NCBI GenBank assembly: GCA_012518595.1 | Contig: JAAYRV010000004.1 | Coordinates: 1 to 50,303 of the forward strand | DNA: 50,303 nucleotides | Direction: 5' to 3' | Origin: Bacillota bacterium | Lineage (GTDB): Bacteria; Bacillota; SHA-98; UBA4971 | Made by a program: the position numbers and the translations under genes | In this document: one piece after another, positions 11,461 through 32,933 of the stretch | How the letters are laid out: every line of letters begins with the position of its first letter | How positions within the stretch are numbered: position 1 is the first letter of the stretch | The notes under the pieces: model-generated | The model's input: the letters and a program-made list of their open reading frames with translations, nothing else | What the model was told of the DNA's origin: nothing | Database searches by the model: none

Positions 11461-11667
11461 GTGTCAGTAGTCAAAGTTGTGGAATTACTTGGTGAGTCAA
11501 CGACAAGCTGGGAGCACGCGATACAGGAGGCTGTAGGCGCAGCGTCCAAGACTATTCGGAATATCACAGGCGTCGAAGTATTGAATATGACCGCCTCCAT
11601 AGAAAATGGCAAGATCGCAAAATACAAAGCCAATGTCAATGTGGCTTTCTCCGTGGACGGTACCTAA
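11461..11667 (+). CDS. Dodecin family (small flavin-binding) protein
   Basis: 68 aa. VVKVVELLGESTTSWEHAIQEAVGAASKTIRNITGVEV...GKIAKYKANVNVAF matches the recalled dodecin pattern. GTG start after AAAGGGGG. Confidence 0.7.
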   Translation: MSVVKVVELLGESTTSWEHAIQEAVGAASKTIRNITGVEVLNMTASIENGKIAKYKANVNVAFSVDGT

Positions 11668-11768
11668 GTATGAGTTCATTAGTTTTCGCTCGTTTTCCAA
11701 GGTCTTGGGTGGTCCCGCACGGTACGTACACTTTCTAGAACCAGCGATCACTTATGGTGGTCTACTGA
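11665..11768 (+). repeat. Mosaic interspersed repeat, copy A (minimal ~104-bp form)
   Basis: TAAGTATGAGTTCATTAGTTTTCGCTCGTTTTCCAAGGTCTTGGGTGGTCCCGCACGGTACGTACAC...GATCACTTATGGTGGTCTACTGA. Shares its left module, core and right module with copies B-E. Confidence 0.85.
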
Positions 11769-11812
11769 GTAATAGCTCATTTCGGATGCATTAGTCAGGG
11801 GGTATATCGAAG

Positions 11813-12319
11813 GTGCCGTCTGAGAAGGCTAAGAAGCAGATAACAAAGATGCCTGAGACTACTCAGAAGGCCCAAGAGCAAAAGCGAAGGCAAGAGGTTT
11901 ATAAGCAACTGGTGGCCGAAAGGAAACCAAAGCCTCCGTATCTCCGAAATTTTCTTGTTGCGTTTGTGACAGGCGGCGCCATTTGTTTAATAGGCCAAGT
12001 TGTCTTAGGCATCTTTATGCGGCGGGGAATGGATATCAATGCAGCGTCTGCGCCTACTCTTGCGGTCATGATTCTCTTGGGCATCGCCCTGACTGCATTC
12101 GGGGTTTATGATGAGTTCGCAGAGTTCGCCGGGGCCGGAGCTGCAGTGCCTATCACAGGGTTCGCTAACACAATCGCTGCGTCTGCCATTGATTTCAAGC
12201 ATGAAGGTTGGGTTTTGGGCATGGGGGCTAAGATGTTTATCATTGCAGGTCCTGTCATCGTCTATGGTATTTTAAGCGGAGTCTTTGCCGCTTTCATAAA
12301 GTTCATTACCAGGTTGTAA
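11813..12319 (+). CDS. spoVAC: Stage V sporulation protein AC
   Basis: Membrane protein with VPITGFANTIA...GPVIVYG motifs, followed by spoVAD and spoVAE. Confidence 0.88.
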   Translation: MPSEKAKKQITKMPETTQKAQEQKRRQEVYKQLVAERKPKPPYLRNFLVAFVTGGAICLIGQVVLGIFMRRGMDINAASAPTLAVMILLGIALTAFGVYDEFAEFAGAGAAVPITGFANTIAASAIDFKHEGWVLGMGAKMFIIAGPVIVYGILSGVFAAFIKFITRL

Positions 12320-12340
12320 CCTGAAGGGGCATACGGCGCT

Positions 12341-13351
12341 GTGGCATCAAAGAAGATTGGAAAGGCAACTGTCAAGTTCATAAATCCCCCGGTTATCATT
12401 GGGACAGGCACTGTAGTAGGACCTATGGAGGGACGTGGACCCCTTGCCGAGGATTTCGACGTGATATTGCCTGACCTGACTTGCGGGGAGAAGACCGCGG
12501 AAAGAAGTGAGCGGAAAATCCTGGAGCAAGCTGCCCAGATTGCTATAGAACGTTCAGGGATTGCAAAGAGCATGATCGATTACTACATTGCAGGCGATCT
12601 TTTGAATCAAATCATCTCAGCAAGCTTCTCCGCAAGGCAGCTGGCCATACCTTTTCTTGGCGTTTATGGGGCGTGCTCCACGTGTGCTATGGGAACGGCC
12701 CTCGGAGGCATGATCATTGACGGTGGGTTCGCTGATTACGTTCTGATTGCGTGCTCAAGTCATTATCAGACAGCGGAACGCCAATTTCGGTACCCGATAG
12801 AATTAAATGTTCAACACAAGCCTACGTCCCAGTATACTGTGACCGGCGCCGGGGCTTTGGTTCTCGCATCTTCCGGGAACGGGGCAAGGGTTACTTGGGC
12901 CACTACCGGTAAGGTCATAGATCTTGGGATTAAAGACCCATACAACTTAGGCGCTGCCATGGCACCTGCTGCTGCCGACACCTTGCTTCGGCATGTAGCT
13001 GACACCGGACATGGTCCGGATGCGTATGACTTAATCCTCACAGGTGATCTCGGGCGCCTTGGATCCGAGCTCTTCCGAGAGTTGACAAAAGACGCAGGTT
13101 GTGACTGTGGGAATAATCACAATGATTGTGGCCTTATGATCTTTGACACAAAGACCCAACGGGTAGGGGCCGGGGCGAGTGGATGTGCGTGTCCGGCCGT
13201 CATTACACTGGGCCATGTACTAAGGGAAATGGAAAGGGGAAAACTGAAGCGCGTTTTGCTCATAGCTACCGGCGCCTTGCTAAGTCCGTTAAGCTCGCAA
13301 CAAGGAGAGACTATTCCCGGAGTTGGCCATGCTATTGTAATTGAGTGGTAG
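12341..13351 (+). CDS. spoVAD: Stage V sporulation protein AD (thiolase-like fold)
   Basis: 336 aa. N-terminal GKATVKF.NPPVIIGTGTVVGPMEG is typical of SpoVAD. Operon context supports the call. Confidence 0.9.
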   Translation: MASKKIGKATVKFINPPVIIGTGTVVGPMEGRGPLAEDFDVILPDLTCGEKTAERSERKILEQAAQIAIERSGIAKSMIDYYIAGDLLNQIISASFSARQLAIPFLGVYGACSTCAMGTALGGMIIDGGFADYVLIACSSHYQTAERQFRYPIELNVQHKPTSQYTVTGAGALVLASSGNGARVTWATTGKVIDLGIKDPYNLGAAMAPAAADTLLRHVADTGHGPDAYDLILTGDLGRLGSELFRELTKDAGCDCGNNHNDCGLMIFDTKTQRVGAGASGCACPAVITLGHVLREMERGKLKRVLLIATGALLSPLSSQQGETIPGVGHAIVIEW

Positions 13352-13367
13352 AAAGAAGGTATGACCT

Positions 13368-13718
13368 GTGGACTACATAGTTGCATTTCTCATAGGAGGG
13401 CTAATCTGCGGTTTAGGCCAATTGGTATTAGATCTGACAACTCTTCTGCCCGGACATATGCTTGTGCTGTTTACAGTGCTCGGAGCTATTACAGGTGGTT
13501 TAGGTCTTTACCAGCCTTTTCTCAAATTTGCAAAAGCAGGCGCGCTGGTGCCGGTCACGGGATTCGGGGCTTCGATTGCCAAGGGATCTCTTTTAGAGGC
13601 AGAACGAACCGGGATTATCGGCTTGTTTACAGGGGCATTTGAATTTACCGGGCAGGGGCTGGCAATAGCCGTATTCTTCAGTGCTATAGCTGCCCTTTTC
13701 TTCAGCCCACGATCTTAA
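13368..13718 (+). CDS. spoVAE: Stage V sporulation protein AE (SpoVAEB-type)
   Basis: 116-aa membrane protein paralogous to SpoVAC (VPVTGFGASIAKG). Confidence 0.88.
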   Translation: MDYIVAFLIGGLICGLGQLVLDLTTLLPGHMLVLFTVLGAITGGLGLYQPFLKFAKAGALVPVTGFGASIAKGSLLEAERTGIIGLFTGAFEFTGQGLAIAVFFSAIAALFFSPRS

Positions 13719-13747
13719 GGACCGCCGGACGTAGGCATTCATTGCCT

Positions 13748-13955
13748 GAGCATGAGTTCATTAGTTTTCGCTCGTTCTCCGAGATCCTGGGTTGCCGGTA
13801 ATTGCGACGAGGGGTGTCAAACTTCGGCCATTAGCCTACAGGCCGGATTTTGTCAAGGAGACCCGCTTGGGGAGCCGTCCCCGAGTGCAACACCGGCAAT
13901 TCCGCACAGTAGGTACACTTTCTGGAACCGGCGATTACTTATGGTGATCTACTTA
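13748..13955 (+). repeat. Mosaic interspersed repeat, copy B (with ~90-nt central block)
   Basis: Same left and right modules as copy A. The central block AATTGCGACGAGGGGTGTCA...CCGTCCCCGAGTGC is shared with copy D. Confidence 0.85.
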
Positions 13956-14035
13956 CTGTATGTCTTCGTACCAAATAACAATTAAAGTAGATGGAAGGCA
14001 TATTGCACATGGACAAAGGATGGTGACAATCCTCT

Positions 14036-15058
14036 GTGAAAGAGACTATAGGGTTCCCTCGGGCTCTTCTATTCTATTATTATTATCCGGCTTGGAAGAC
14101 GTTTTTTGAATCCCTTGGCCAGACTTGCCAAGTCTCAGGCAAGACCACAAAGGCAATGATCGATTCAGGGATCAAGGTTACAGTAGACGAGGCGTGTCTG
14201 CCGGTAAAAGCTTTCCATGGCCATGTGCAGAGTCTTTCCGGTGAATGTGACAGAGTGTTCGTTCCGAGACTGGTATCTGTTGAAAAAAAGGCATACATAT
14301 GTCCGAAACTAATGGGCCTTCCTGATATGGTAAGACATAATTGCACCGGTATCCGGCAAATACTGGACCCATGTATTGATATGAGTAGAAACCGAAAAGC
14401 CTTCGCAAAAGAAGTGTATACGACAGGTAGGCTTTTCACACGAAATCCGCTGAAGATATCTGCTGCGAGACAAAAGGCTGAGTATACATATGAAATGTTT
14501 ACTCGGCTCCTCCAGGCAGGGCTTGCACCTATTGAAGCTATGACAAAGATGAACTTGCACGATGCCCCGGATTCTTGGAACTCCGGCACGTCCCATAATG
14601 CTCCGGCTTTCGAAAAAGCGGTGGGAGCTCGGCCCCTCGTCATAGGCCTTCTGGGGCATCCTTATATTATTTATGATTCGTTTCTCGGAATGAACGTTTT
14701 AGATAGGCTTAAGCTGATGCGTGCAAACGTAGTGACTATGGATATGCTGCCGCCTACGATGATTGAAAGGGAGGCAGCGAAGTCGCGTAAGCGGGTATTC
14801 TGGACCATGGGGAGAAAGCTGCTTGGAGCAGGCTACTACTTTCTGAGACCGGGAACTGTAGACGGTTGCCTCCAAATGAGCGCGTTTGCCTGTGGTCCCG
14901 ACTCTTTCATCAGCGAGCTTCTACAACAAGAGTCAGCCAGAAGTCAGCGGAAGGTTCCATTCATGACGATCATAGTTGACGAACACACAGGAGAAGCCGG
15001 CGTCCACACGAGACTTGAGGCTTTCCTGGATATTGCGGAGAGGTCGCGTCCAGGGTGA
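14036..15058 (+). CDS. Acyl-CoA dehydratase activase-related protein (DUF2229-type)
   Basis: IGFPRALLFYYYYPAWKTFFESLG...VDEACLPVKAFHGHV is typical of the non-ATPase partner of BcrAD/BadFG-type activases. Confidence 0.7.
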   Translation: MKETIGFPRALLFYYYYPAWKTFFESLGQTCQVSGKTTKAMIDSGIKVTVDEACLPVKAFHGHVQSLSGECDRVFVPRLVSVEKKAYICPKLMGLPDMVRHNCTGIRQILDPCIDMSRNRKAFAKEVYTTGRLFTRNPLKISAARQKAEYTYEMFTRLLQAGLAPIEAMTKMNLHDAPDSWNSGTSHNAPAFEKAVGARPLVIGLLGHPYIIYDSFLGMNVLDRLKLMRANVVTMDMLPPTMIEREAAKSRKRVFWTMGRKLLGAGYYFLRPGTVDGCLQMSAFACGPDSFISELLQQESARSQRKVPFMTIIVDEHTGEAGVHTRLEAFLDIAERSRPG

Positions 15059-16143
15059 AACTGACCTTTGCGCGTCTGGGCAATATGCACATAGCAGGGA
15101 AAGCTCTTTTCGAAGCGCTGGGAATTGACGTAGTGCTTCCTCCACCTCCCACGAAACGCACAATGTCTCTGGGCTCCCTCTACTCGCCTGAGTTCGCATG
15201 TCTTCCGCTGAAAGTGAATATCGGGAACTACCTGGAAGCTTTGGAGAAAGGAGCGGATACAATTGTAATGGTAGGAGGCATAGGCCCATGCCGCCTTGGG
15301 TTATATGGCGAGATCCAACGTCAAATCTTGGAAGGGCTCAGGTGCGATTTCAAGATGATTGTGGTGGAGCCGCCGCAAGGGAGACTCGACCGTGTTGTCA
15401 GGCAATTGCGGGAGATTATCGGACCTCAACCTATCACACGGTACATTCGCGCTCTGCATCTCGGCTGGAGTAAACTAGCGAGTATAGACACTTTGGAGAA
15501 ACTTGCTCTTGAGCTTCGTCCGTTTGAAAATTCAAAGGGTGAAGTCTCATTTGCCTTCGAGGCCGCTTTGAAGTGTATAGAAGAGGCGGGTACGCCGAAA
15601 GAGGTAACTTCTGCCGCAGAAAACGGACAAACGGCGATGAAGTCCGTCTGCAAGAAGACAGACTCAGATAAACCTCGAATCGGTATTGTGGGAGAAGTAT
15701 TCATGGTCCTCGAACCTTTTGTCAACTGTGAGATTGAGAAACGCCTGGGCGAGATGGGAGTGGTAGTACTGAGATCAATCTACCTCAGTGATTGGATAGT
15801 GGAGCATGTGGTAAAGGACGTGTTTCGCATTCTTCGGAAGTCCAAGCTTCCATATGAATTGGCCAAGCCTTACTTATGTCACTTCGTCGGGGGCCACGGC
15901 GTGGAAACGATAGCGTCTACTGTGGACTATGCAAAGCAGGGTTTGGACGGCGTAATTCAGGTGGCTCCTTTCACATGTATGCCGGAAATCATAGCTCAAG
16001 ACATACTACCTACCGTTTCGAAGGAGCTCGGGATTCCCGTAATGACTCTTGTTCTTGATGAGCATTCGTCGGGCACAGGGGTCTTGACGCGTCTCGAAGC
16101 TTTTGTTGACTTAGTCCGGATGTCACGCCGCGCAAGGAGATGA
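15055..16143 (+). CDS. Acyl-CoA dehydratase activase-related protein (second DUF2229-like subunit)
   Basis: SPEFACLPLKVNIGNY...GGIGPCRLGLYG and C-terminal VLDEHSSGTGVLTRLEAFVD, which parallels the C-terminus of the previous gene. Overlaps that gene's stop by 4 nt. Confidence 0.65.
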   Translation: MKLTFARLGNMHIAGKALFEALGIDVVLPPPPTKRTMSLGSLYSPEFACLPLKVNIGNYLEALEKGADTIVMVGGIGPCRLGLYGEIQRQILEGLRCDFKMIVVEPPQGRLDRVVRQLREIIGPQPITRYIRALHLGWSKLASIDTLEKLALELRPFENSKGEVSFAFEAALKCIEEAGTPKEVTSAAENGQTAMKSVCKKTDSDKPRIGIVGEVFMVLEPFVNCEIEKRLGEMGVVVLRSIYLSDWIVEHVVKDVFRILRKSKLPYELAKPYLCHFVGGHGVETIASTVDYAKQGLDGVIQVAPFTCMPEIIAQDILPTVSKELGIPVMTLVLDEHSSGTGVLTRLEAFVDLVRMSRRARR

Positions 16144-16149
16144 TTTCCG

Positions 16150-17109
16150 GTGGCAGGGTCAGGATATCTCGGAGTGGATGTGGGTTCTGTCAGCACTAAC
16201 TTAGTGCTGATCGATGAGGCAGGAGTGTTACTGGAGAAGATCTATCTGAGGACTCAGGGAGATCCGATAGGCGCTGTAAAGGAAGGAATGCGGCAACTTG
16301 CCGCTGTTGCCGGTGATATGAAGATTCTCGGAGTAGGAACATCAGGAAGCGGCCGGAAGTTGGCAGGAGTGATCCTCGGCGCTGATTGCGTCAAGAATGA
16401 GATTACCGCTCATGCAGTAGCTGCCAACCATAAGGTGCCAGGTGCCCAAACGGTAATTGAAATCGGCGGCCAAGACTCAAAAATCATCATTCTCAGGCAG
16501 GGGGTGGTTATTGACTTCGCCATGAATACTGTGTGCGCAGCAGGCACAGGGTCTTTCTTGGAGCAACAAGCTGCCAGGCTCGGTATTGCCATAGATAAAT
16601 TCGGCAAACTTGCGCTTGGGGCTGTAACTCCTGTGAGAATCGCAGGCAGATGTGCAGTATTTGCTGAGTCAGATATGATACATAAGCAGCAAATGGGACA
16701 CAGGATTGAAGACATAATTTCCGGTTTGTGTGAGGCGCTTGTCCGAAACTACTTGAATAATGTAGGGAAGGGGAAAGCTATTGAACCGCCTGTAGTTTTC
16801 CAGGGCGGCGTTGCTGCCAATGCCGGCATGAAAGCTGCTTTTGAAAAAGAACTAGTCACACAAGTCATCGTGCCGGAACATTATGATGTAATGGGTGCCT
16901 TAGGCGCTGCACTGGTGGCTGCCGAGGAGAAAAGCAGAAAAGACGGGCAATCCACATTTCGTGGATTCAAGGCGCTTAACAGAGACTATGCTACCAGGAC
17001 CTTCGAATGTAGCGGCTGTCCGAACCTTTGTGAAATCGTAAATATTACTATGGATAATGAGGTTATTGCCAGATGGGGTTCCAGGTGCGGCAGGTGGGAT
17101 TCACTGTGA
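16150..17109 (+). CDS. BadF/BadG/BcrA/BcrD-type ATPase (CoA-substrate-specific enzyme activase)
   Basis: ASKHA-fold motifs (LGVDVGSVSTN, EIGGQDSK, CAAGTGSF). C-terminal Cys cluster CSGCPNLC...RCGRW. Confidence 0.75.
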   Translation: MAGSGYLGVDVGSVSTNLVLIDEAGVLLEKIYLRTQGDPIGAVKEGMRQLAAVAGDMKILGVGTSGSGRKLAGVILGADCVKNEITAHAVAANHKVPGAQTVIEIGGQDSKIIILRQGVVIDFAMNTVCAAGTGSFLEQQAARLGIAIDKFGKLALGAVTPVRIAGRCAVFAESDMIHKQQMGHRIEDIISGLCEALVRNYLNNVGKGKAIEPPVVFQGGVAANAGMKAAFEKELVTQVIVPEHYDVMGALGAALVAAEEKSRKDGQSTFRGFKALNRDYATRTFECSGCPNLCEIVNITMDNEVIARWGSRCGRWDSL

Positions 17110-17159
17110 CGATGCTGACAAAGGCCGCAGTCAAAGCGGACACAAAGCGGAGAACTCTC

Positions 17160-17188
17160 TTGACCGCAGATAGCTTGCATGCTATTAT
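17160..17188 (+). promoter_or_regulatory. Sigma-A-type promoter upstream of lysA
   Basis: TTGACC, 17-nt spacer, TATTAT. An AGCTTG/CAAGCT inverted repeat (17173-17200) brackets the -10. Confidence 0.55.
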
Positions 17189-17272
17189 GTGAAACAAGCT
17201 ATCACTTGGATTAGAACGGAATTGATGGTGCAGGGAAGATTAACTGGGACTAATATCAAGAGACACGAACTT

Positions 17273-17302
17273 GCGGACAAGGTAAGCCGGTCCGCTGTTT
17301 TT
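17273..17302 (+). terminator. Terminator-like hairpin inside the lysA leader (possible attenuator)
   Basis: GCGGAC, 11-nt loop, GTCCGC, then TGTTTTT. It ends 2 nt before ATG 17305 and just upstream of the GGGAGAGG RBS of the alternative TTG start. Confidence 0.35.
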
Positions 17303-17304
17303 GG

Positions 17305-18687
17305 ATGGGAGAGGCGAAATTGGAGCTACACAGGTCTATACAGATTACAAGTGACGGAGAATTAGAAATAGCCGGTTGCCGTGCCACTCGCCTTGCAAGA
17401 GACTTTGGCACCCCTCTTCATGCCTTTGACGAAGAGATGATGCGCACCAAATGCCGGGAAATAAGAACGTCGCTCATGAGACACTATCCCAAGGTTTTCG
17501 TTGCATACGCAAGCAAGGCTTTTTGCTCTCTTGCCATGTGCAGGCTTATCCATGAAGAGTCCTTAGGCCTTGATGTGTGTTCCGGGGGAGAGTTGTTCAC
17601 AGCTCTTGAGGCAGGAATTCCCACGGAGAATATTCTGTTTCATGGAAACTCCAAGACCTCCCAGGAAATCGAAATGGGCGTAAGGGTCGGTGTGGGGAGA
17701 TTCGTCATAGATAACCTTGACGAGCTTGACTTGCTTTCTGACATATCGCGGAAATTTAGAAGAAGAACGCATGTCGAGATTCGTCTCAATCCGGGAGTGG
17801 AAGCGCATACACATGACTATATCAAGACCGGCCTCATAGACTCCAAGTTCGGGCTCGGGATAACTGATGGGCAGGCTATGAAAGCAGTGGAACGAGTGCT
17901 GGCTTCGGATTATCTCGTTCTTGAGGGAATCCATAGCCATATCGGGTCTCAAATACTTAACGTAGAACCCTACGTCCTGGCGGCCCAGGTTGTCATGGAC
18001 TTTGTAGGAGATGTGAAAGAAAAATACGGGTATAGTTTGCGTGAAGTCAATCTCGGAGGCGGATTCGGTGTTAGGTACAAGGCAACAGACACACCGATAT
18101 CCCTTGATGAATACAGCAGGAGAATATCCCAGGTCATTCGGGAATCCTGTCATGTGCAACGTCTGGATCTCCCATGTGTCGTGGTAGAACCGGGGCGTTA
18201 CATCGTAGGTGAGGCAGGAACCACATTATACACTGTTTGCGCAATCAAGGACATACCCGGAATCCGAAAATACATCATGGTAGACGGTGGGATGTCGGAG
18301 AATCCCAGAGTTACGCTATACCAAGCTGAGTACGAGGCTATCTTAGCCAACAGAGCATTGGAAGAGCCTGCTGAGACCGTCTCCATAGCGGGTAAGCACT
18401 GTGAAGAAGGAGATATGCTGGTTATCGATGGCAAGATGCCACAGATTCAACCCGGTGATCTCTTGGCAATCCCTACTACAGGGGCTTACCATTACTCAAT
18501 GGCAAGTAATTATAACAGATATCCCAGGCCTGCGGTGATATTCGTAAAGGCGGGTTTGGCTGACATCGTTGTGGAGAGGGAGAGCTACGCGAATCTAGTA
18601 GCAAGAGACCGGATACCCAGACGGTTGGCTCAAGCCGGCGCAAAGGAGATTCGCCCTCATTTGCCTGCAGCGGGCAATCCAGGCTAG
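17305..18687 (+). CDS. lysA: Diaminopimelate decarboxylase
   Basis: Type III PLP decarboxylase motifs (AYASKAF, HSHIGSQ, EPGRYIVGEAG). Position after spoVA matches Bacillus. An alternative TTG start at 17320 lies 5 nt after GGGAGAGG. Confidence 0.9.
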   Translation: MGEAKLELHRSIQITSDGELEIAGCRATRLARDFGTPLHAFDEEMMRTKCREIRTSLMRHYPKVFVAYASKAFCSLAMCRLIHEESLGLDVCSGGELFTALEAGIPTENILFHGNSKTSQEIEMGVRVGVGRFVIDNLDELDLLSDISRKFRRRTHVEIRLNPGVEAHTHDYIKTGLIDSKFGLGITDGQAMKAVERVLASDYLVLEGIHSHIGSQILNVEPYVLAAQVVMDFVGDVKEKYGYSLREVNLGGGFGVRYKATDTPISLDEYSRRISQVIRESCHVQRLDLPCVVVEPGRYIVGEAGTTLYTVCAIKDIPGIRKYIMVDGGMSENPRVTLYQAEYEAILANRALEEPAETVSIAGKHCEEGDMLVIDGKMPQIQPGDLLAIPTTGAYHYSMASNYNRYPRPAVIFVKAGLADIVVERESYANLVARDRIPRRLAQAGAKEIRPHLPAAGNPG

Positions 18688-21089: not shown

Positions 21090-21635
21090 ATGGAGTACAA
21101 TGAGGCCAGAGCAATAATCGAGGCCTTGATTTTTGCGTCACCGAGTCCGATTTCGGCAAAACGGATAGGAGAGATCACAGGTCTGGACTCAAAGACTGTG
21201 CAATCTATGGTAAAAGACGTCCAGGATAAGTATAGACGAGACGACTCAGGAATTCAGATAGTGTTTGTAGCAGGCGGTTATGAGATGGCCACAAAACCTC
21301 AGTTTGCTGATTATGTTTCCTGCCTCAATATAGAAGTCAGGCAAAGTCTGTCACGCCCCGCCCTGGAGACCCTTGCAATAATAGCGTACAGACAGCCTGT
21401 TACCAAGCCGGAGTTAGAGACTATCCGTGGTGTTCGGGTAGACAGTGTCTTGAATACCCTCATGGAACGATGTCTCGTGCGCGTGTCCGGGAGAAAAAAG
21501 GCGCCTGGGCGTCCTGCCCTGTATTGTACCACATCAACATTTCTCAGGTGGTTCGGTCTTGCGTCCCTTGACGAGCTTCCACCGCTTACGGAGGACTCCG
21601 ACTCTCTCCTTGGAATACTAAGTAGATCACAATGA
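21090..21635 (+). CDS. scpB: Segregation and condensation protein B
   Basis: IIEALIFASPSPIS...LETLAIIAYRQPVTKPELETIRGV motifs. ATG at 21090 follows AGGGGGA. The last 5 codons and the stop lie in repeat copy C. Confidence 0.88.
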   Translation: MEYNEARAIIEALIFASPSPISAKRIGEITGLDSKTVQSMVKDVQDKYRRDDSGIQIVFVAGGYEMATKPQFADYVSCLNIEVRQSLSRPALETLAIIAYRQPVTKPELETIRGVRVDSVLNTLMERCLVRVSGRKKAPGRPALYCTTSTFLRWFGLASLDELPPLTEDSDSLLGILSRSQ

Positions 21636-21904
21636 GACCGTTGTTCTCTTCCACATTATGTTAACGCAGCTCGCTTGAATCGCAAAAACCGGTCGCCGTC
21701 TTCAGCGAAACCGGCAGCTACTGGAGAAGTTCAACGATCTCCACCATAAGTAATCGCGGGTTCCAGAGAGTGTGCGTACCGTGCCGGGTTGCCGGTGTTG
21801 CACTCGGGGACTGTATATAGGTCACCGGCTTCAGAAAACGTACGTACCGTGCGGGGCCACCCAAGACGTCGGAAAACGAACGCAAACTAATGAACTCATA
21901 CTTA
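21619..21904 (-). repeat. Mosaic interspersed repeat, copy C (two cores, short central block, 108-bp cassette)
   Basis: The reverse complement aligns with copies A, B and D from TAAGTATGAGTTCATTAG to GATCTACTTA. Confidence 0.85.
21634..21741 (+). mobile_element. 108-bp MITE-like cassette with terminal inverted repeats, nested in repeat copy C
   Basis: Termini are GAGACCGTTG...CAACGATCTC. Flanked by CACAAT (21628-21633) and CACCAT (21742-21747). Matches the reverse complement of 30032-30139 at 102/108 positions. Confidence 0.75.
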
Positions 21905-24671: not shown

Positions 24672-25912
24672 TAATAGGAGCAGGACCTGCAGGCTTCATA
24701 GCTGCAGGAAGAGGTGCATCGCAAGGAGCATCTGTGACTCTCTTGGAACGGAACAGCAGACCGGGTCGGAAACTCCTTATCACAGGGAAGGGCAGATGCA
24801 ACTTTACCAATGATACAGATGTGGACGGATTGGTAGCCGGTATGCCGGGAAACGGAAAGTTCTTATATTCCGCTTTCTCAAGGTTTGATTCTTATGACCT
24901 CAGGGCGTTTTTCCGGGAACTCGGAGTCGAGAGTAAAACAGAAAGAGGCAAAAGGGTGTTTCCTGCGTCCGGAATATCCATGGACGTGCTTCGGGCTTTG
25001 GTGATGTATGCAAAAAAGAGCGGGGCCCGACTGAAGTGCAATTCCACGGTGAAACATGTTGTGGCGCGAGACGGCAAGGTTCAGGGAGTAATCGTGAGCG
25101 CAGTTAACGGGCAGGCTCAGTTTTTGCGGTGCGATGCAGTAATAATTGCGACCGGGGGAATTACCTATAAGGCTACAGGTTCTACAGGGGATGGCTTCAG
25201 AATGGCCAAAGAGCTGGGGCATAATATTGTCCCACCCAGGGCTTCTCTCATCCCGCTTGAGACAATTGAGTCATGGCCTCGAGATGTGGCAGGGTTGACA
25301 TTGCGTAATGTTCAGGCGACCTTGATGGTAGATGGGTGTGAAGTCGGGTCAGAGTTCGGAGAAATGCTCTTCACTCACTTCGGAGTATCAGGTCCCATTA
25401 TCCTATCACTTTCACGGGCGGCTGCGTCCGCTATGATTCATGCAAGTCCCAAAATAGCGCTGGAGATCGATGTTAAGCCTGCTCTCTCCCATGAACAACT
25501 GGATGCCAGGATTTTGAGGGATTTCCAAAAACACGGAGGACAAACCATATACAATTCTCTGGTTGACCTTGTGCCTAAACATCTAATTGCCATAATTGTG
25601 CAGGAAGCCGGCATATCTCCGGCGAAACATGTATCTCAGGTAACCAGGGAGGAAAGACTTCTCATCGGCAGAACCCTGAAAAAGCTTACCTTCCATGTAG
25701 CCGGATTAAGGCCGACAGATGAAGGGATTGTAACCGCAGGTGGGGTAGACGTTGATGAAATTGATCCTAGCAGAATGGAATCACGACTCGTCAAAGGACT
25801 GTTCTTTGCAGGAGAGGTAATTGACATTGACGGTATGACCGGCGGGTTCAATCTACAGGCTGCGTTTTCCACAGGTTACATTGCAGGTGAATCCGCGGCT
25901 GAAGTAAGGTAG
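24653..25912 (+). CDS. HI0933/BaiN-like NAD(P)/FAD-dependent oxidoreductase
   Basis: DIIVIGAGPAG dinucleotide motif and C-terminal GLFFAGEVIDIDGMTGGFNLQ. TTG at 24653. The ORF-track start at 24578 lies inside rluB. Confidence 0.8.
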   Translation: MQKDIIVIGAGPAGFIAAGRGASQGASVTLLERNSRPGRKLLITGKGRCNFTNDTDVDGLVAGMPGNGKFLYSAFSRFDSYDLRAFFRELGVESKTERGKRVFPASGISMDVLRALVMYAKKSGARLKCNSTVKHVVARDGKVQGVIVSAVNGQAQFLRCDAVIIATGGITYKATGSTGDGFRMAKELGHNIVPPRASLIPLETIESWPRDVAGLTLRNVQATLMVDGCEVGSEFGEMLFTHFGVSGPIILSLSRAAASAMIHASPKIALEIDVKPALSHEQLDARILRDFQKHGGQTIYNSLVDLVPKHLIAIIVQEAGISPAKHVSQVTREERLLIGRTLKKLTFHVAGLRPTDEGIVTAGGVDVDEIDPSRMESRLVKGLFFAGEVIDIDGMTGGFNLQAAFSTGYIAGESAAEVR

Positions 25913-25923
25913 AGGAGGGCGCT

Positions 25924-26142
25924 ATGAGCCTGGTCTCCAATGAAGGAAAAGAAGGCATTGACAGAGTGTTATGTATCCTTGAGAGAGTGTTCGGCATAGC
26001 ATTATGCATGTTCTTGGTTCTTACGCTGTTGGGACAAGTCATTTTGAGCACGCCGAAAGGAAGATCCGGTTTCAGCAGGATTGAGCGGCTTGAGGGTATA
26101 AGACTGGATGTGGATGCCGGTTACTACAACGATTCAAACTGA
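25924..26142 (+). CDS. Small membrane protein, possibly YpfB/DUF5359-like (by position upstream of cmk)
   Basis: 72 aa with one TM helix and a GAGGAGGG RBS. The family assignment is a guess from synteny only. Confidence 0.45.
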   Translation: MSLVSNEGKEGIDRVLCILERVFGIALCMFLVLTLLGQVILSTPKGRSGFSRIERLEGIRLDVDAGYYNDSN

Positions 26143-26210
26143 ATATTCTAACAACCATACGATTTAAGCGCATTACTGAGAGATTTATTTGAGGAGAAGA
26201 GGAATCTGCG

Positions 26211-26975
26211 ATGTATACGTCGAATAACGTAAGAGCGAACAGAAATCGTTCAGGGCCGGTTGTTGCCATTGATGGGCCTGCAGGTTCAGGGAAGAGTACA
26301 GTAGCAAAGGCCATAGCAAAAATGTTTGATATGGCTTATGTCAGTACAGGCCTTATTTACCGGGCTCTGACCTTAAAGGCATTACGCCTCGGAGTCAACG
26401 TTCGAGAGCCTCAATCGGTAGTCAGATTGGCCGAGACTACTGAAGTTGCGGTTTTACCCGATGAAGGTGAATGCCGTGTTCTCCTTGACGGTGAGGATGT
26501 AACAGGTGAGCTGACATCTCCGCAGGTGGGCGCTTATGTATCGGAAGTAGCGGAGATTCCGGGAGTGAGGACTGCTCTTTTGGACATACAACGAGCAATA
26601 GGAAATAAGGGCAGCGTAGTAATGGACGGAAGGGATATTGGAACTGTTGTTATGCCTGACGCAGACGTAAAGATATTCCTTGTGGCGGATTTTGACGAGC
26701 GTGTGCGTAGACGGGTAATTCAAGCCCGCGAGCGAGGATATGACGTGGTAGAAGAGACTATTATCAACGAAATCATGCATAGAGACAAAATTGACAGTGG
26801 ACGGACGGTAGCTCCCCTTAAACCGGCGCCTGATTCCATTGCCATTGACACCACGGGAAAAACTCCTGAAGAAACCATCAGCGAAGTGGCAGGTGTCATT
26901 CACTCGATACTTTCCAAGGATAAGAATATCAGGAATGTGTCCGGGGGCAAGGAGGAAGCGCCTTGTTTTATGTAA
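26211..26975 (+). CDS. cmk: Cytidylate kinase
   Basis: VVAIDGPAGSGKST P-loop; DGRDIGTVV. Has a roughly 25-aa C-terminal extension relative to my expectation. Confidence 0.9.
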   Translation: MYTSNNVRANRNRSGPVVAIDGPAGSGKSTVAKAIAKMFDMAYVSTGLIYRALTLKALRLGVNVREPQSVVRLAETTEVAVLPDEGECRVLLDGEDVTGELTSPQVGAYVSEVAEIPGVRTALLDIQRAIGNKGSVVMDGRDIGTVVMPDADVKIFLVADFDERVRRRVIQARERGYDVVEETIINEIMHRDKIDSGRTVAPLKPAPDSIAIDTTGKTPEETISEVAGVIHSILSKDKNIRNVSGGKEEAPCFM

Positions 26976-27601
26976 TCATTAGGGCAATTCTCAGATTCGT
27001 CATGAGAATTGCCTTTAGTATGCAAGTAGAAGGTAAGGCTAACATTCCGGAAGAAGGCGGCGTGATCTTGGCTGCCAACCACTCAAGCATGCTCGACCCT
27101 GTGGTGGTGGGGTGTGCCATAGATCGGCCCATTCGATTCATGGCAAAGCGTGAGTTATTTGATAACCCTTTTCTTGGGATAATAGCGCGCGGTCTAGGCG
27201 CTTTTCCCGTTCAGCGCGGAAAAGATGATAAGGACGCATTCCGTCAAGCTCTCGAAGTGCTTAGGAACGGTCAAGTATTGGGAATGTTTCCCGAAGGAAC
27301 CAGGAGCGTCGACGGCAGGCTGCAGAAAGCATATTCCGGGGCAGCCGTGCTGGCGGAGAAAACCGATGCCTATCTGGTACCGGTGGGGATAGTCGGCACA
27401 AATAGGGTTATGCGTAAAGGTGCTGTCCTTCCCAGAGGGGGACGCATTTATGTGAGATTTGGCAAGCCGATTATTCCTGCTGAAGTATGCTCCATGATTT
27501 CCCTGGATGAGTGCTCAGTCAGGCCGAAAGATGCTATTACAAATCTCATGATGGAGGAGATCAAGAGATTGGTCGGGAGCTTTAGTGAGTCGCCATGTTA
27601 A
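26963..27601 (+). CDS. plsC: 1-acyl-sn-glycerol-3-phosphate acyltransferase family protein
   Basis: NHSSMLD (HX4D) and FPEGTRS motifs. Confidence 0.85.
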   Translation: MFYVIIRAILRFVMRIAFSMQVEGKANIPEEGGVILAANHSSMLDPVVVGCAIDRPIRFMAKRELFDNPFLGIIARGLGAFPVQRGKDDKDAFRQALEVLRNGQVLGMFPEGTRSVDGRLQKAYSGAAVLAEKTDAYLVPVGIVGTNRVMRKGAVLPRGGRIYVRFGKPIIPAEVCSMISLDECSVRPKDAITNLMMEEIKRLVGSFSESPC

Positions 27602-27648
27602 GTTTAGTGTGATGTTGGGAGATAATAGGGAAGAAGGTAGAACGGGTA

Positions 27649-29919
27649 TTGCAGGTTATGATTGGTGAACACAGCGGGTTCTGCTTTGGGGTTAAGCGAG
27701 CGGTTGAAATTGCTGAAGCGGCAGGCGCCGAAGGCACAGCCTTCACCCTCGGTCCCCTGGTTCATAACCCTCAGGTTGTCGCCAAACTAAGAGAAATAGG
27801 AATTATTCCGGTATCGGGTTTAAGTGAGATTTTAGATGGTTGTATGATAGTACCGTCCCACGGGCTACCGCCTTCTATTATTGATGAGGCCTTGACGAGA
27901 GGGCTGAGAGTCGTTAATGCCACTTGTCCGTACGTCAGGCGTATACAAGAGCGGGTAGCTGAGTTAGACAGTAAGGGCTATCAGGTGTTTATTGTTGGTG
28001 ACGAAGGACATACAGAAGTAGTCGGGCTGGTGGATTGGGCCGGAGGTAATGCAAGGGTTGTCAAAACCAGTGAGGACGTGGCATCCGGTTCCGTCGAGCC
28101 CAAGGTCGGTGTTGTTTGCCAGACCACCCAGACAATTGAGGCTTTTCGCCGGGTTCTAGCTGCCCTTGCCTTGAGGGCTAAAGAGCTTGTGGCCTACAAT
28201 ACAATATGTAATGCTACTTGTAAAAGGCAGGATGCTGCACGCAAGCTGGCACAATCAGTTGATGCCGTGATTGTGGTCGGCGGGCGAGCCAGCGCGAATA
28301 CGCGAAGGCTTGTAGAAATATGTCAGGCGGAAGGCGCTAGGGTCTACTGGGTGGAAGGGCCGGAAGACCTAAATGCCCTGGACTTTTCCGGACTCGAAAG
28401 GGTGGGGTTAACGGCGGGGGCATCAACGCCAAATTGGGTTATCGAGGAGGTCGTTGAGAGGATGAGCGCACTGGATGAAGAGAAGATAAATGAGTTGGGG
28501 GTAACAGAGATTACTGAGGACAAAATTGAGAACGAAGTTGAATGCGTTGATCTAAGTGAAGAGGCAAGCGAAAAGGAAATGCAGGAAATTCCTGAGGATT
28601 CAGTTGAATGCGCCGACAGTGAAGGGGAAGATAAGGACACACCGCAAGGAGAGCCTGAGACTTCGCAGGTGGACGAAGAAGAGCCTGAAACTTCACAGGT
28701 AGAGGAAGAGGAGCCTGAAACTTCACCGGTAGAAGAAGAGCCGGATCTTACAGGACCTGAAGAGGAGGAACCGGTGACTGTGGATATGCCGCTCCAACCA
28801 GCGTTTGTAGAGGGCGACATAGTCCAAGGTGCGGTTGTCATGGTTGAACCTGAGCGGGTCCTTGTCGATATTGGACTGAAGTCCGAAGGCGTAGTGCCGA
28901 GAAATGAAATTGCCAGAAGACAGGTAGAATCATGCGAAGGTATAGTCAATGTAGGTGACAAGATAGATGTTTTAGTCGAGAAACTGGAATCCAGCAGCGG
29001 TGAGCCACTGCTATCTAAGCGGAAGGCTGATATTGCCAAGGCATGGGATGCAATTTTTGACGCTCTTGAGAATGACGGTATAGTCGAAGGGGAAGTCACA
29101 GACGTAGTCAAAGGCGGTATCGTTGTAGATGTCGGCCTGAGGGGTTTTGTCCCTGCCTCACATGCAGGTATCCGTCCTATTCAGGATCTGGGAACTCTTG
29201 TCGGAAAGACTCTTCGAATGAAGGTTCTGGAAGCTGACAGGGATAAGAAAAACGTGGTTCTCTCCGCACGGCGAGTGCTTGAAGAAGAGCTGGCTGAAGC
29301 CAGGAAACGTGTGTTCGAATCTCTAAACGAAGGCATAATTGTCGAAGGTATCGTAAGACGTGTCGTTAATTTTGGGGCGTTTATCGACATAGGCGACGGA
29401 GTGGAAGGTCTTCTTCACGTTTCGGACATGGCCTGGACGAGAACGGAAGATCCCAAAGATGTGGTCTCAGAAGGAGAACGAATAAGAGTAAAGGTTCTGG
29501 GTGTAGACAGGGAGCGCGAGCGAATTTCATTGGGTCTCAAACAAACCCTTCCGGATCCATGGGATGACGTGACCACAAGATACCCAGTAGGTGACATTGT
29601 CAAAGGCACAGTCACCAAAACAGTGGATTTTGGCGCTTTTGTTCAGTTGGAACCTGGGATTGAAGGCCTTGTGCATATCTCGCAATTAGCTGATAGACGA
29701 GTGGAGAGGCCTGATGATATAGTCAGTCCCGGAGATGAGATTGCGGTAAAGGTCATCAGTGTAAGGCCCAGAGACCACAGGATCGGCTTGAGTCTGAAAG
29801 AAGCTCAATCCGAAGAGGAGAAGCGCGTCTATAAGAAGTACGCGGATAGATCCGATAGCCAAGGGCCTACTATTGGTGATGTTTTTGGCGATATTCTCAA
29901 GAACTCACAGGAAGAATAG
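27649..29919 (+). CDS. ispH: Fusion protein: 4-hydroxy-3-methylbut-2-enyl diphosphate reductase (IspH) joined to 30S ribosomal protein S1 (four S1 domains)
   Basis: N-terminal SGFCFGVKRAV...CPYV...GDEGHTEV...ASANTRRL IspH motifs. An acidic repeat linker follows, then four S1 repeats (GxVxxVxxFGAFVxL-like). The alternative start is ATG 27658. Confidence 0.88.
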   Translation: MQVMIGEHSGFCFGVKRAVEIAEAAGAEGTAFTLGPLVHNPQVVAKLREIGIIPVSGLSEILDGCMIVPSHGLPPSIIDEALTRGLRVVNATCPYVRRIQERVAELDSKGYQVFIVGDEGHTEVVGLVDWAGGNARVVKTSEDVASGSVEPKVGVVCQTTQTIEAFRRVLAALALRAKELVAYNTICNATCKRQDAARKLAQSVDAVIVVGGRASANTRRLVEICQAEGARVYWVEGPEDLNALDFSGLERVGLTAGASTPNWVIEEVVERMSALDEEKINELGVTEITEDKIENEVECVDLSEEASEKEMQEIPEDSVECADSEGEDKDTPQGEPETSQVDEEEPETSQVEEEEPETSPVEEEPDLTGPEEEEPVTVDMPLQPAFVEGDIVQGAVVMVEPERVLVDIGLKSEGVVPRNEIARRQVESCEGIVNVGDKIDVLVEKLESSSGEPLLSKRKADIAKAWDAIFDALENDGIVEGEVTDVVKGGIVVDVGLRGFVPASHAGIRPIQDLGTLVGKTLRMKVLEADRDKKNVVLSARRVLEEELAEARKRVFESLNEGIIVEGIVRRVVNFGAFIDIGDGVEGLLHVSDMAWTRTEDPKDVVSEGERIRVKVLGVDRERERISLGLKQTLPDPWDDVTTRYPVGDIVKGTVTKTVDFGAFVQLEPGIEGLVHISQLADRRVERPDDIVSPGDEIAVKVISVRPRDHRIGLSLKEAQSEEEKRVYKKYADRSDSQGPTIGDVFGDILKNSQEE
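28651..28740 (+). repeat. In-frame 30-bp tandem repeat x3 in the IspH-S1 linker
   Basis: Units are gagcctgaRacttcRcaggtRgaSgaagaR at 28651, 28681 and 28711. They encode (EPETSQV[D/E]EE)-like decapeptides. Confidence 0.9.
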
Positions 29920-29977
29920 AGCACCTGGGTTTCCAGACAGCATCTATATTTGAGTAAGCATGAATGCAAGCTGACAT

Positions 29978-30010
29978 AGCGCCGATGGTTCTCGACCATC
30001 GGCGCTTTCA
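29978..30010 (+). terminator. Terminator-like hairpin after ispH::rpsA
   Basis: AGCGCCGATGGT-tctcg-ACCATCGGCGCT (12-bp perfect stem) followed by TTCATCTCT, a weak U tract. Confidence 0.6.
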
Positions 30011-30016
30011 TCTCTC

Positions 30017-30366
30017 TAGGTAGATTACCATGAAACCGTTGAACTTCTCCAGTAGTTGCCAGTTTCGCCGAAGACGGCGACCGGTTTTTGCGATTCAAGC
30101 GAGCTGCGTTAACATAATGTGGGAGAGAACAACGGTCTCCTCCATAAGTAATCGCCGGTTCCAGTGAGTGTACGTACCGTGCGGGTTTCCGGTCCCGCAC
30201 TCGGGGACGGCACCCCAAGCGGGTCGCCTTGACAAAATCCCGCCCGTAGGCTGGTGGCCGAATTCTGACACCCCTCGTTGCAATTACCGGCTTCAGAAAA
30301 TGTACGTACCGTGCGGGACCACCCAAGACCTCGGAAAACGAGCGAAAACCAATGAACTCATACTCA
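30017..30366 (-). repeat. Mosaic interspersed repeat, copy D (longest: two cores, ~90-nt block, 108-bp cassette)
   Basis: The reverse complement aligns with copy B over the central block (roughly 85-90% by eye) and with copy C elsewhere. Confidence 0.85.
30032..30139 (-). mobile_element. 108-bp MITE-like cassette, nested in repeat copy D in the opposite orientation
   Basis: Termini are GAAACCGTTG...CAACGGTCTC. Flanked by TACCAT (30026-30031) and CTCCAT (30140-30145). The host repeat flanks have the same orientation as in copy C. Confidence 0.75.
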
Positions 30367-30449
30367 GGAATAACCCTTCTGAGATAGGGAAAAGCTATTT
30401 TCCAGGGTGTGGAAGAGAGTCTGTTTCCACGGATGAAGGGGGCTTTGGT

Positions 30450-31145
30450 ATGACAGTCGGACTCATTCTGCTGCTCGTAGTAAGTGTTGTCATTTTTCTC
30501 GGACTTGCTCACAGGGTTCTTGATCGGATGCGTCTCAATGACAAACAAGCCCTGGTGGCTGTTTTGCTGATTCTAGTCGGAGGATTCGTTGATATTCCTA
30601 TATATCGCGGTATTCAGACGGTTAGCATCAATCTTGGGGGCTCAGTAGTCCCTGTGTTCCTAGCCATATACGTATTGGCCCGTGCTGACACGCCCGCTGA
30701 AACCAGACGAGGTATCTTTTCTGCAGTAGCTACAGGAGCAGCTCTTGTAGCCATATCAAAGATATTCACGTTCGAAGAAGGCAGAACGATAATTGACTCA
30801 GTATACGTTTTCGGACTGGTAGCAGGGGCTATAGCATACCTGCTCGGTAGATCCAGGCGTGCAGCGTTTTCAGGCGCAGTCTTAGGTGTTGTGATCCTGG
30901 ATATTGCCCATCTGGTGGAAGTCGTAATCAAACGGCTCCCGTCTACTGTAAATCTGGGTGGAGCAGGAGCCTTTGATGCAGTAGTCATCGCCGGCGTCAT
31001 TGCTGTAGGTCTTACCGAATTGTTCGGCGAAACCATGGAGCGACTGCAAGGGGGGCACATACCGGAGAGTCGAGGCGGAGCTGACGTTGTTTCGAAATCC
31101 ATAGACCATGAACAGGACATACCAGGCGATGAGTCTGACGAATAA
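30450..31145 (+). CDS. DUF1614-like integral membrane protein
   Basis: 231-aa polytopic protein (INLGGSVVPV, NLGGAGAFDAVV). ATG at 30450 lies 7 nt after GAAGGGGG. The ORF-track N-terminal 94 aa are translated repeat DNA. Confidence 0.65.
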   Translation: MTVGLILLLVVSVVIFLGLAHRVLDRMRLNDKQALVAVLLILVGGFVDIPIYRGIQTVSINLGGSVVPVFLAIYVLARADTPAETRRGIFSAVATGAALVAISKIFTFEEGRTIIDSVYVFGLVAGAIAYLLGRSRRAAFSGAVLGVVILDIAHLVEVVIKRLPSTVNLGGAGAFDAVVIAGVIAVGLTELFGETMERLQGGHIPESRGGADVVSKSIDHEQDIPGDESDE

Positions 31146-31163
31146 GCGGGGGGGTATCAGCAT

Positions 31164-32252
31164 ATGACCGGCACTGGGCACGAATATCATAGCATTCGAA
31201 GAAGCCGCGTGTTACGCGTAGCACTCATAGTAGCTATTGTCTCTCTGGCTTGCGGATTGCTCTTTCAAGGGACTCTATTTGCCGAAGATGAACTGTCCGA
31301 AGGTTACTACACTCTGGTTGACGAGGATGAAAATGCAGTTTTTCACACTGCTCTTGTGCTTTCTCCCGGCGATATGTTCATTAATGAAGACAACAGAACT
31401 TATGAAGTTGTTAGAATCCACGAGCAGACTGCGTACGCGCGCTTTACGGAGACAACCACTTTAGACGAGGGCCACGAGGCTTTTGGAGATGGCATAACAT
31501 CGCTTTTATCCGGTGTCGCAAGGAGCTTAAGTCAGATGTTTTTTGCCGAACAGAAGCCGGCAGAAAGAACTGTGGTGCTATATAACACCCATAGTGATGA
31601 GTCCTATGAACCTTCAAGCGGTTCATCCACAAAGGATTGGGGCGATGTTTACAAGGTTGCAGCTGCGTTTGAGCAAGCCCTTAAGAAACAGGGATTTGAT
31701 GTGGTAAGAGCTACTGATAATCACAATCCCCATGACGGCGGTGCATATGCTCGTTCAAGGCGGACTTTAGCCAAGCTACTGAAGCAACAACCTACCGCAG
31801 CCTTCGACATTCACAGAGATGCTGTGCCTCCCGAGGCTTATAGGGCTACTGTCCTAGGAGAAGAAGTGACCAAAATAACGCTGGTCATAGGTCAGCAAAA
31901 CCAGACCAGGGGTCAGAATCTTCGCTTCGCAAAGCAACTGAAGTCAGCTACTGATTCCAAGGCGCCGGGTCTCATAAAGGGAATTCTGTGGGCTCAAGGG
32001 AATTACAATCAAGACATGTTGCCCAGAGCAGCGTTATTGGAAGTAGGCGCCCACACTAACAATCTTGAGGAGGCAGAAAGGGCTGTTGGAATTCTCGCGT
32101 CTGCCATTGCGCCGGTAGTATCCACACCCGGAGCTGCAAAGGGTTTAGACCGGGGTTCTCCGGCAAGGTCCATTGCATGGATTATTGGAATAGTGATTGT
32201 GGCAGGTGTAGGCTACGTCCTAGTCAACTCCAGGAGACTCCGGAGGCAGTGA
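31164..32252 (+). CDS. spoIIP: Stage II sporulation protein P
   Basis: VVLYNTHSDESY...FDIHRDA...ITLVIGQQN motifs of the SpoIIP amidase/endopeptidase family. Confidence 0.88.
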   Translation: MTGTGHEYHSIRRSRVLRVALIVAIVSLACGLLFQGTLFAEDELSEGYYTLVDEDENAVFHTALVLSPGDMFINEDNRTYEVVRIHEQTAYARFTETTTLDEGHEAFGDGITSLLSGVARSLSQMFFAEQKPAERTVVLYNTHSDESYEPSSGSSTKDWGDVYKVAAAFEQALKKQGFDVVRATDNHNPHDGGAYARSRRTLAKLLKQQPTAAFDIHRDAVPPEAYRATVLGEEVTKITLVIGQQNQTRGQNLRFAKQLKSATDSKAPGLIKGILWAQGNYNQDMLPRAALLEVGAHTNNLEEAERAVGILASAIAPVVSTPGAAKGLDRGSPARSIAWIIGIVIVAGVGYVLVNSRRLRRQ

Positions 32253-32317
32253 GTTCCTCGATTGATCCACAGTTTGCAAGGCCTGGTCCGAGCCGGTAGC
32301 GTGGGGGTCCGAAAAGA

Positions 32318-32815
32318 GTGAAGGTAATATACTGCTGCTATGGCAGCTCCCACTCTTCTGTGGTGGCTGCAGCCATCCACCTTGGAAATCTGCCTACCGA
32401 CACCATACCGCACCCACGGGATATCCTGAACCTGCCTTACTATGATAGAGTAACCATGGACGAGGTCGGAGCTTGCATACATATGGGACGTGATGATATC
32501 GGATGCGACGTGTATATCCTAGGTATGGGGCCTGGAAGAAGGATTGTGAAACGTGCCGTGGAAAGCATTTTTCAAGTCTGTGGGGTTTCAAGAGATTCAT
32601 ATATGCTTGTGGACACCTTAACGTCAATAGGGGTCATTACGAAAATAGGAGGGTTCCTATCCAGAAGAATAGGTCTTACGCGAATCGGCCGACCGATGGC
32701 TACTTGGGGTATACGGCGAGCTTATCCCAGGCTGGTATCTATTGTTGCCCGGGTTAAGTCAGATCCTCGCTACCTCAGTTTCCGTTCGTTTTCCGAGGCC
32801 TTGGGTTACCGGTGA
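32318..32815 (+). CDS. DUF3189 family protein
   Basis: MKVIYCCYGSSHSSVVAAAIHLG matches the recalled DUF3189 N-terminus. The last 13 codons and the stop are encoded by repeat copy E. Confidence 0.65.
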   Translation: MKVIYCCYGSSHSSVVAAAIHLGNLPTDTIPHPRDILNLPYYDRVTMDEVGACIHMGRDDIGCDVYILGMGPGRRIVKRAVESIFQVCGVSRDSYMLVDTLTSIGVITKIGGFLSRRIGLTRIGRPMATWGIRRAYPRLVSIVARVKSDPRYLSFRSFSEALGYR

Positions 32816-32933
32816 CCTATATGCAGTCCCCGAGTGCAACACCGGCCTCAGAAAACGTACATACCTTGCGGGGCCACCCCGCACGGCACGTACACCTTTT
32901 TGGAACGGTCGAACACTTATGGCGATCTACTTA
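32775..32933 (+). repeat. Mosaic interspersed repeat, copy E (5'-truncated; contains an inverted plus a direct core)
   Basis: TCAGTTTCCGTTCGTTTTCCGAGGCCTTGGGT..., the short central block shared with copy C, and ...CTTATGGCGATCTACTTA. Confidence 0.75.

Follow-up and report, generated by a model that had tools for sequence, protein, structure and literature searches.

What are the five similar repeats that lie between genes of an uncultured sporulating bacterium, and how did they come to look like mosaics? The repeats, here called copies A to E, occupy sites between 11665 and 32933 of a 50,303-nucleotide stretch of a Bacillota genome (assembly GCA_012518595.1, contig JAAYRV010000004.1, positions 1 to 50,303; hereafter the window). 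An original prediction, made from the letters of the window, described them as an unrecognised family of shuffled modules resembling bacterial interspersed mosaic elements (BIME) and repetitive extragenic palindromes (REP). [quoted passage not shown] The copies have terminal inverted repeats, duplicate their target, prefer CTAG, fill sites that are empty in relatives, carry nested insertions and have been rearranged in situ; from this pattern we infer the identity of the transposase and its cut-and-paste chemistry. The features are listed below in window numbering; L-numbers (L015, L092 and so on) denote loci fetched from relatives and metagenomes.

11665-11768, + strand: copy A, the basic 100-nt outer MITE (element 11667-11766), flanked by TA (11665-11666) and by a mutated GA (11767-11768)
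13747-13955, + strand: copy B, a 205-nt form (element 13749-13953), flanks TG...TA
21619-21904, - strand: copy C, 282 nt (element 21621-21902)
21634-21741, - strand: inner MITE nested in C, 108 nt, with terminal inverted repeats of the GAGACCGTTG type
30017-30366, - strand: copy D, 346 nt (element 30019-30364)
30032-30139, + strand: inner MITE nested in D, in the opposite orientation to that in C and 94% identical to it
32773-32933, + strand: copy E, truncated at the 5' end, closing with the right arm and then TA (32932-32933)

Reading of the five stretches and an unbiased repeat search both recovered all five copies where they had been predicted. Their common modules are far above chance: the 16-nt core CCGCACGGTACGTACA has 8 matches at <=3 mismatches in the window against 0.13 expected, the left module 5 against 0.00 and the right module 4 against 0.01. 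The eight cores include an inverted one in E, and C and D each have two direct cores, both as first described. Outer copies are mutually ~81-95% identical and do differ block by block, with a ~105-nt block common to B and D (88% identity) and a 38-nt block common to C and E (97% identity); the similar peptides in the open reading frame (ORF) track are, as had been supposed, mere translations of the repeat. The account of five copies built from shared modules is nevertheless incomplete, given that it left undescribed the 108-nt segment common to C and D, a separate nested element that faces opposite ways in the two with respect to the remainder of each copy.

Ends, target and empty sites

The basic element is 100 nt long and has imperfect terminal inverted repeats of ~25 bp (AGTATGAGTTCATTAGTTTTCGC... 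/ ...GCGATTACTTATGGTGATCTACT) around a short core. Its left arm TAAGTATGAGTTCATTAGTTTTCGC matches the reverse complement of its right arm TAAGTAGATCACCATAAGTAATCGC at 16/25 positions, and the element folds back on itself. The element proper starts AGTATGAG and ends ATCTACT; in short form, the outer ends read AGTATGAGTTCATTAG...GATCTACT between TA flanks. The inverted-repeat ends reported earlier as TAAGTA/TACTTA are real, with the correction that the outer TA is duplicated target and not part of the element.

A search for empty sites, proposed with the original prediction, found sites A-D, all filled in the window, to be empty in relatives. Site A reads GGCACC-TA-GTAATAGC in L019 (90% SpoVAD identity) and GGTACC-TA-[AGTATGAG...GGTCTACT]-GA-GTAATAGC in the window, that is, CC-TA-GTAATAG when empty and CC-TA-[element]-GA-GTAATAG when filled. 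Site C reads GGAATAT-TA-GGTTTAAA when empty (L023) and GGAATAC-TA-[element]-TA-GGTTTAGA when filled, with ...TA-GGTTT on the right of the target in both states. Site D is empty in L090/L091, with the sequence CTTCTC-TA-AGGAATAACCC (short form CTC-TA-AGGAATAACC), and site B is empty in relatives with its right flank conserved. At A, C and D, relatives with the empty site have a single TA and the window has two, which enclose the element; the context of the single TA is C-TA-G or T-TA-G at A and C. On a broader scale, relatives at 81-90% SpoVAD identity have the same gene order without copies A-C, and relatives at 72-75% SpoIIP identity are without D and E; a relative of 92% SpoIIP identity (L092) shares D and not E. 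L019 has a degenerate copy of its own (6738-6797) between a PBP5-like gene and spoIIAA, where the window site is empty.

The preference for CTAG emerges from copies at other loci. A degenerate left-module pattern, searched in 185,579 species genomes, found 12 loci in four metagenome-assembled genomes (MAGs) of uncultured Bacillota, with 14 further copies of the same mosaic, and a 23-nt left-end pattern found 58 metagenome loci; the family is thus not confined to this locus, a point on which the interest of the original prediction had depended. Removal of orthologous duplicates left 45 non-redundant complete copies, truncated ones being extra, with lengths of 99-349 nt and no conserved ORF, from at least five species-level genomes and many metagenomes. 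Just outside the two TA, C precedes on the left in 39/45 and G follows on the right in 37/45; the flanking TA itself is present in 37-43/45, and the flanks show no further conservation. No palindromic tetramer of the window is more depleted than CTAG (40 observed versus 194 expected, ratio 0.21), against 2460 TA dinucleotides, so that the preference is one for CTAG rather than for TA in general. Members of the IS630 family insert at TA, which they duplicate, and IS630 itself favours TA within 5'-CTAG-3' (PMC2170065, which refers to Tenzen & Ohtsubo 1991). A 3-bp TNA duplication was considered and rejected, given that the left TAA/TGA and the right TTA/TGA are complementary and not identical as direct repeats. 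GTAC is also depleted in the window (ratio 0.45), and several of the remaining CTAG sites there coincide with ORF ends, with C before a TAG stop.

The original prediction had most copies starting at or within a few nucleotides of a stop codon. This is exact for A alone: B lies 30 nt and D ~100 nt past a stop, the insertion point of D being just past the ispH-S1 terminator hairpin, and C lies inside the last five codons of scpB. The impression is explained by the AG ends together with the CTAG target. Both element ends start AG, so that a TAG stop preceded by C becomes TAA when the element inserts there; in the dodecin gene at A, the TAA stop is made up of TA and the element's first A, the original TAG having lain inside the CTAG target. 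Stop regeneration and the rarity of CTAG would together explain why copies lie at gene ends.

These insertion signatures bear directly on the REP/BIME-like organisation first proposed, in which short extragenic palindromes are assembled into mosaics and spread, with no target duplication, by a REP-associated tyrosine transposase (RAYT, IS200/IS605-like Y1). Such an origin would fit copies that are modular and intergenic, have modules in both orientations and have hairpin potential. It is contradicted by the terminal inverted repeats, the clean TA duplication at CTAG and the filled and empty sites. Furthermore, terminal inverted repeats of 25 bp bound a unit of 100 nt, where a REP would be a palindrome of 20-40 nt; the copies are solitary with no clustered arrays, and one of the supposed modules is itself an element that has terminal repeats and a 6-bp duplication. 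No RAYT was found near any copy, though the search was not exhaustive. We therefore regard a REP/BIME origin as scarcely credible.

A second MITE nested in the arms of the first

The inner element of C and D is a second, separate MITE: it has terminal repeats and a target duplication of its own, and size variants at independent sites. Its terminal inverted repeats, GAGACCGTTGnnnTCTCC, match at up to 20/20 positions (L036), and it occurs in sizes of 95, 108 and 167 nt. Insertion is at nt 11-16 of either outer arm and in both orientations (C versus D; L047 versus L063), the point being TAAGTAGAT-CACCAT-AAGTA in the right arm and TAAGTATGA-GTTCAT-TAGTT in the left. In C, where it sits in the right arm, it is bordered by the 6-bp duplication CACAAT/CACCAT (21628-21633, 21742-21747), and in D by TACCAT/CTCCAT (30026-30031, 30140-30145). 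The 6-bp direct repeats ATGGTG, GTGGCG, CGCCAT, ATAGTG and GTTCAT each track the local arm variant, which points to independent insertions, and they are perfect in 6/9 of the scorable insertions listed, plus L009.

Strict, symmetric arm targeting by the inner MITE is the feature most worth attention, and the arm-specific nested MITE is the most unusual feature of the family. The inner terminal-repeat pattern has 20 matches in 672 kb, one of them apparently due to chance. Outer-arm sequence borders 17 of the other 19 at the arm site; the last two are one next to the outer right end (L051) and one at an assembly gap (L047). That the inner element is a 'hyperparasitic' MITE, with the terminal inverted repeat of the outer arm as its obligatory target, is a tentative and rather doubtful extension of these observations. 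Use of the same arm position, and of almost no other site, would then imply sequence-specific target capture of the arm by a transposase or insertion into DNA bound or bent by the outer transposase. A search for paired inner terminal repeats 400-3000 bp apart found no parent insertion sequence. One MITE family specifically colonising the arms of another could serve the study of target choice by small transposons.

The inner MITE also has a terminator-like hairpin, TCGCCGAAGACGGCGA, followed by the T-run CCGGTTTTTG, at 30065-30080 (+) in D and 21708-21693 (-) in C. If it acts as one, it would turn neutral MITE copies into orientation-dependent transcription stops. In D, the hairpin runs with the genes, between ispH-S1 and DUF1614; in C, it runs against them.

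Could the copies be structured noncoding RNA genes or cis-regulatory RNAs, such as terminators or processing sites, with modules as helices and blocks as expansion segments? The terminator-like hairpin with its T-run would suit this, as would the position of copies at gene ends inside operons and the folding of the basic form into a long imperfect hairpin of -31 kcal/mol. The z-score of that fold is just -1.7, however, and that of a second fold -2.25, and the 11 basic copies have compensatory changes in 0/36 pairs. The copies also stand in both orientations relative to the co-directional genes (A, B and E on +, C and D on -). An Rfam scan, one of the checks attached to the original prediction, gave no match at gathering across the whole window; at E<=5 over 11500-33100 it gave nothing relevant, with RF02865 (29973-30088, in D) at 22 bits versus a gathering score of 58 (E=5) and the other two matches outside the copies. 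The insertion signatures explain the distribution, and any effect at the RNA level would be secondary, as it is for Correia or ERIC elements. Neither an RNA identity nor RNA covariation is supported, and we consider an RNA origin very improbable.

Other searches were likewise negative. A tRNA/tmRNA scan found none, a promoter scan found no promoter-like site inside any copy, and a distant blastn search with the longest copy gave no match in plasmid and phage collections. In viral contigs, the outer end had 0 matches and the inner terminal repeat 7 unpaired chance matches. Hence, the claim that the family matches nothing catalogued holds for Rfam and for the phage, plasmid and viral collections; the claim that it belongs to no known class does not, given its MITE features.

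Sources of the mosaic

The mosaic would be secondary and have three sources, namely the nested second MITE, the ~90-nt block, and deletions and inversions. What had been read as shuffled modules is better explained by the nested second MITE together with deletions and inversions between short repeats. The ~90-nt block is bounded by GCCGGTG/CACCGGC and has an internal 15-bp hairpin. It occurs in both orientations (inverted in L004b) and in several internal-deletion derivatives, including the 25-nt form of C and E. Its ends, GAGGCCGGTG, resemble both the terminal repeat of the inner MITE (8/10) and the core-flank of the outer element, and the block could be ancestral in the element or else be a third MITE.

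Copy B is built of the left arm, a ~105-nt block (13794-13897), a single core and the right arm, and this architecture is repeated in seven other copies of 203-206 nt at other loci. C has direct cores at 21771-21786 and 21839-21854 on either side of a short block (21791-21828), and D has direct cores at 30169-30184 and 30301-30316 with a full block at ~30186-30291, each in addition to its nested inner MITE. In E, a short block (32809-32846) is followed by an inverted core (32856-32871, -) beside a forward core (32879-32894). There, element-derived codons stand in place of the final ~10 codons of the DUF3189 gene (32318-32815); the gene end is intact in L092, which has no copy E, and is also present in L090-L091. 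The truncation of E looks like an adjacent deletion at the left end of the element. The 45 non-redundant complete copies have the following forms.

99-101 nt: basic form, 11 copies
203-206 nt: B-type form, 8 copies
214-215 nt: basic form with nested element, 3 copies
Up to 349 nt: other forms, the remainder

The composites of ~205 and ~215 nt form uniform size classes at unrelated loci, which indicates that they transposed as units. The remaining variants stem from deletions and inversions between duplicated cores and short inverted repeats. At site C in L015, in a region 97.5-99.9% identical to the window nearby, exactly the 68 bp between the direct cores are missing (the block and one core), and L007 and L044 have differing architectures at one orthologous site. 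The inverted core of the E type is what one would expect if core plus block had inverted between short inverted repeats (GGGTKGCC/GGCAACCC).

Transposase, related systems and neighbourhood

By analogy with IS630/Tc1-mariner elements, a DDE transposase of that type would move the element in trans; it would bind the inverted repeats, excise the element and paste it into the TA of a CTAG, duplicating the TA. Some observations weigh against this. No paired outer ends 700-2600 bp apart enclose a transposase in ~750 kb of fetched loci, and the facing ends at that spacing have ordinary genes such as spoVA and nrdG between them. A tblastn search with an IS630 transposase had no match below E=5, which is a weak test of low sensitivity. 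Sites A-C are occupied in all same-species contigs examined that reach them, which gives no sign of recent mobility within the species, and the ~90-nt block has no clean target duplication. Finally, TA duplication within CTAG may also fit some transposases of the IS5 family (IS427 group), so that the IS630-type assignment is probable and not certain. An all-against-all comparison of the same ~750 kb returned orthologous regions and NN scaffold gaps, and no internal segment of >=500 bp in multiple copies. Eight left ends without a nearby right end were considered as autonomous copies and rejected, all being 3'-truncated. With no partner found, the IS630-type assignment is read from the insertion signature.

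The same MITE may instead have been moved by an enzyme of another family, either an IS5-family transposase (IS427 group, PIF/Harbinger-like), which would likewise target CTAG-like sites and make short duplications containing TA, or one since lost, leaving an orphan MITE like Correia. The missing IS630-like partner in ~750 kb would then be expected, as would outer copies that are ~81-95% identical, hence not very young, and the occupancy of A-C in the same-species contigs reaching them (L013-L015; A also in L016). A strict 2-bp TA duplication at CTAG is nevertheless the textbook signature of IS630, and the 3-bp TNA alternative is excluded. We consider a different enzyme unlikely and an IS630/Tc1-mariner-type transposase the probable mover.

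Among described repeats, one of the closest in kind is RUP (107 bp, Streptococcus pneumoniae), also a ~100-bp Bacillota MITE with terminal inverted repeats, an IS630-type TA duplication and tens of intergenic copies. Oggioni & Claverys 1999 are said to have linked IS630-Spn1 to RUP as its presumed partner. The present family differs in its strong CTAG preference, in having no partner found, in the nested element at one defined arm position and in its uncultured sporulating host; no sequence relationship is evident, and the two are set side by side by description. Pneumococcal repeats are also inserted into one another (PMC10969869, PMC3184786). The Correia elements of Neisseria (CREE/NEMIS) are MITEs of ~104-157 bp with ~26-bp inverted repeats, length variants due to internal deletion, and inversions; they have no known autonomous partner and can alter transcription and mRNA processing (PMC10969869, PMC3184786). 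They belong to another phylum and differ in sequence, and the copies described here have no promoter-like sites. Correia elements, too, have a TA duplication. To our knowledge, they are not riddled with a second nested MITE.

IS630 and ISY100 insert at TA with the same 2-bp duplication; they are autonomous elements of ~1-1.2 kb with a transposase, in contrast to the non-coding 100-350 nt here. REP/BIME sequences and the insertion sequences that target them combine a mosaic look with repeat-specific insertion like that of the inner MITE into outer arms, IS1397 and IS621 being mobile elements that insert specifically into REPs (PMC3184786). REPs, however, are palindromes of 20-40 nt spread by RAYT with no target duplication, and the elements targeting them are full insertion sequences, not MITEs. 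BOX (boxA-boxB(n)-boxC, S. pneumoniae) is also a modular intergenic Bacillota repeat whose copies differ by whole modules; there, the difference lies in the tandem number of boxB, and here in nested insertion, inversion and deletion. The family is thus uncatalogued and its class an ordinary one, that of TA/CTAG-targeting MITEs; it can be compared to RUP or Correia, has been nested and rearranged, and reveals no new class of element. Among bacteria, it offers a clean example of a MITE with IS630-type targeting of CTAG/TA and with ends that regenerate stop codons.

The host is a sporulating member of the Bacillota, the window having sigF, spoVAC/AD/AEB, scpA/B, an ispH-S1 fusion and spoIIP. Its GC content is 49%, and all identified genes are on the + strand. 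The closest named organisms reach a SpoVAD identity of <=63%; related contigs come from biogas-fermenter and other metagenomes. The 6.6 kb that follow the window on its 3' side contain no copies. Taken together, the distribution points to bursts after species divergence, followed by decay and rearrangement. Copies A and B have the same orientation and bracket the spoVAC-spoVAD-spoVAEB operon with their ends 2290 bp apart, which is a coincidence: a composite transposon carrying spoVA was considered and rejected, given that spoVA stands at this place in relatives too, where the repeats are missing.

In MAGs of this uncultured lineage, assembly breaks and spurious ORFs and peptides are accounted for by the family, and filled and empty sites between relatives are strain and species markers. 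L092 (3,058 bp) starts inside copy D, and the SpoIIP contigs of relatives are ~3 kb, close to the D-E spacing, which suggests assembly breaks at D and E. L016 and L018 end inside B or D, and in L017 (1760-1800) the sequence passes midway through B to an unrelated locus. MAGs therefore under-count the family, since contigs break or are misjoined at these repeats.

Three further repeats lie nearby. Directly right of copy E (32934-33110) is a second unrecognised repeat family, with about three 53-nt units, each with a hairpin, GATTGGCTCT...AGAGCCAATC. The 53-nt unit forms a 6.2-copy tandem array in L078 (10392-10721, 85% matches) and also occurs in L008 (1080-1600), L032, L035, L046, L009 and L082; pieces of it adjoin MITE copies in several other loci. 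The spacer between E and a ppiC-like gene, which is enlarged (36-84 nt in relatives), has a 17-nt tandem repeat, TGGTTCATGCGCTGGTG, in 4.1 copies (33235-33303). Finally, three in-frame tandem 30-nt units, 77-100% identical, lie at 28646-28735 in the linker of the ispH-S1 fusion ORF, before the S1 domains.

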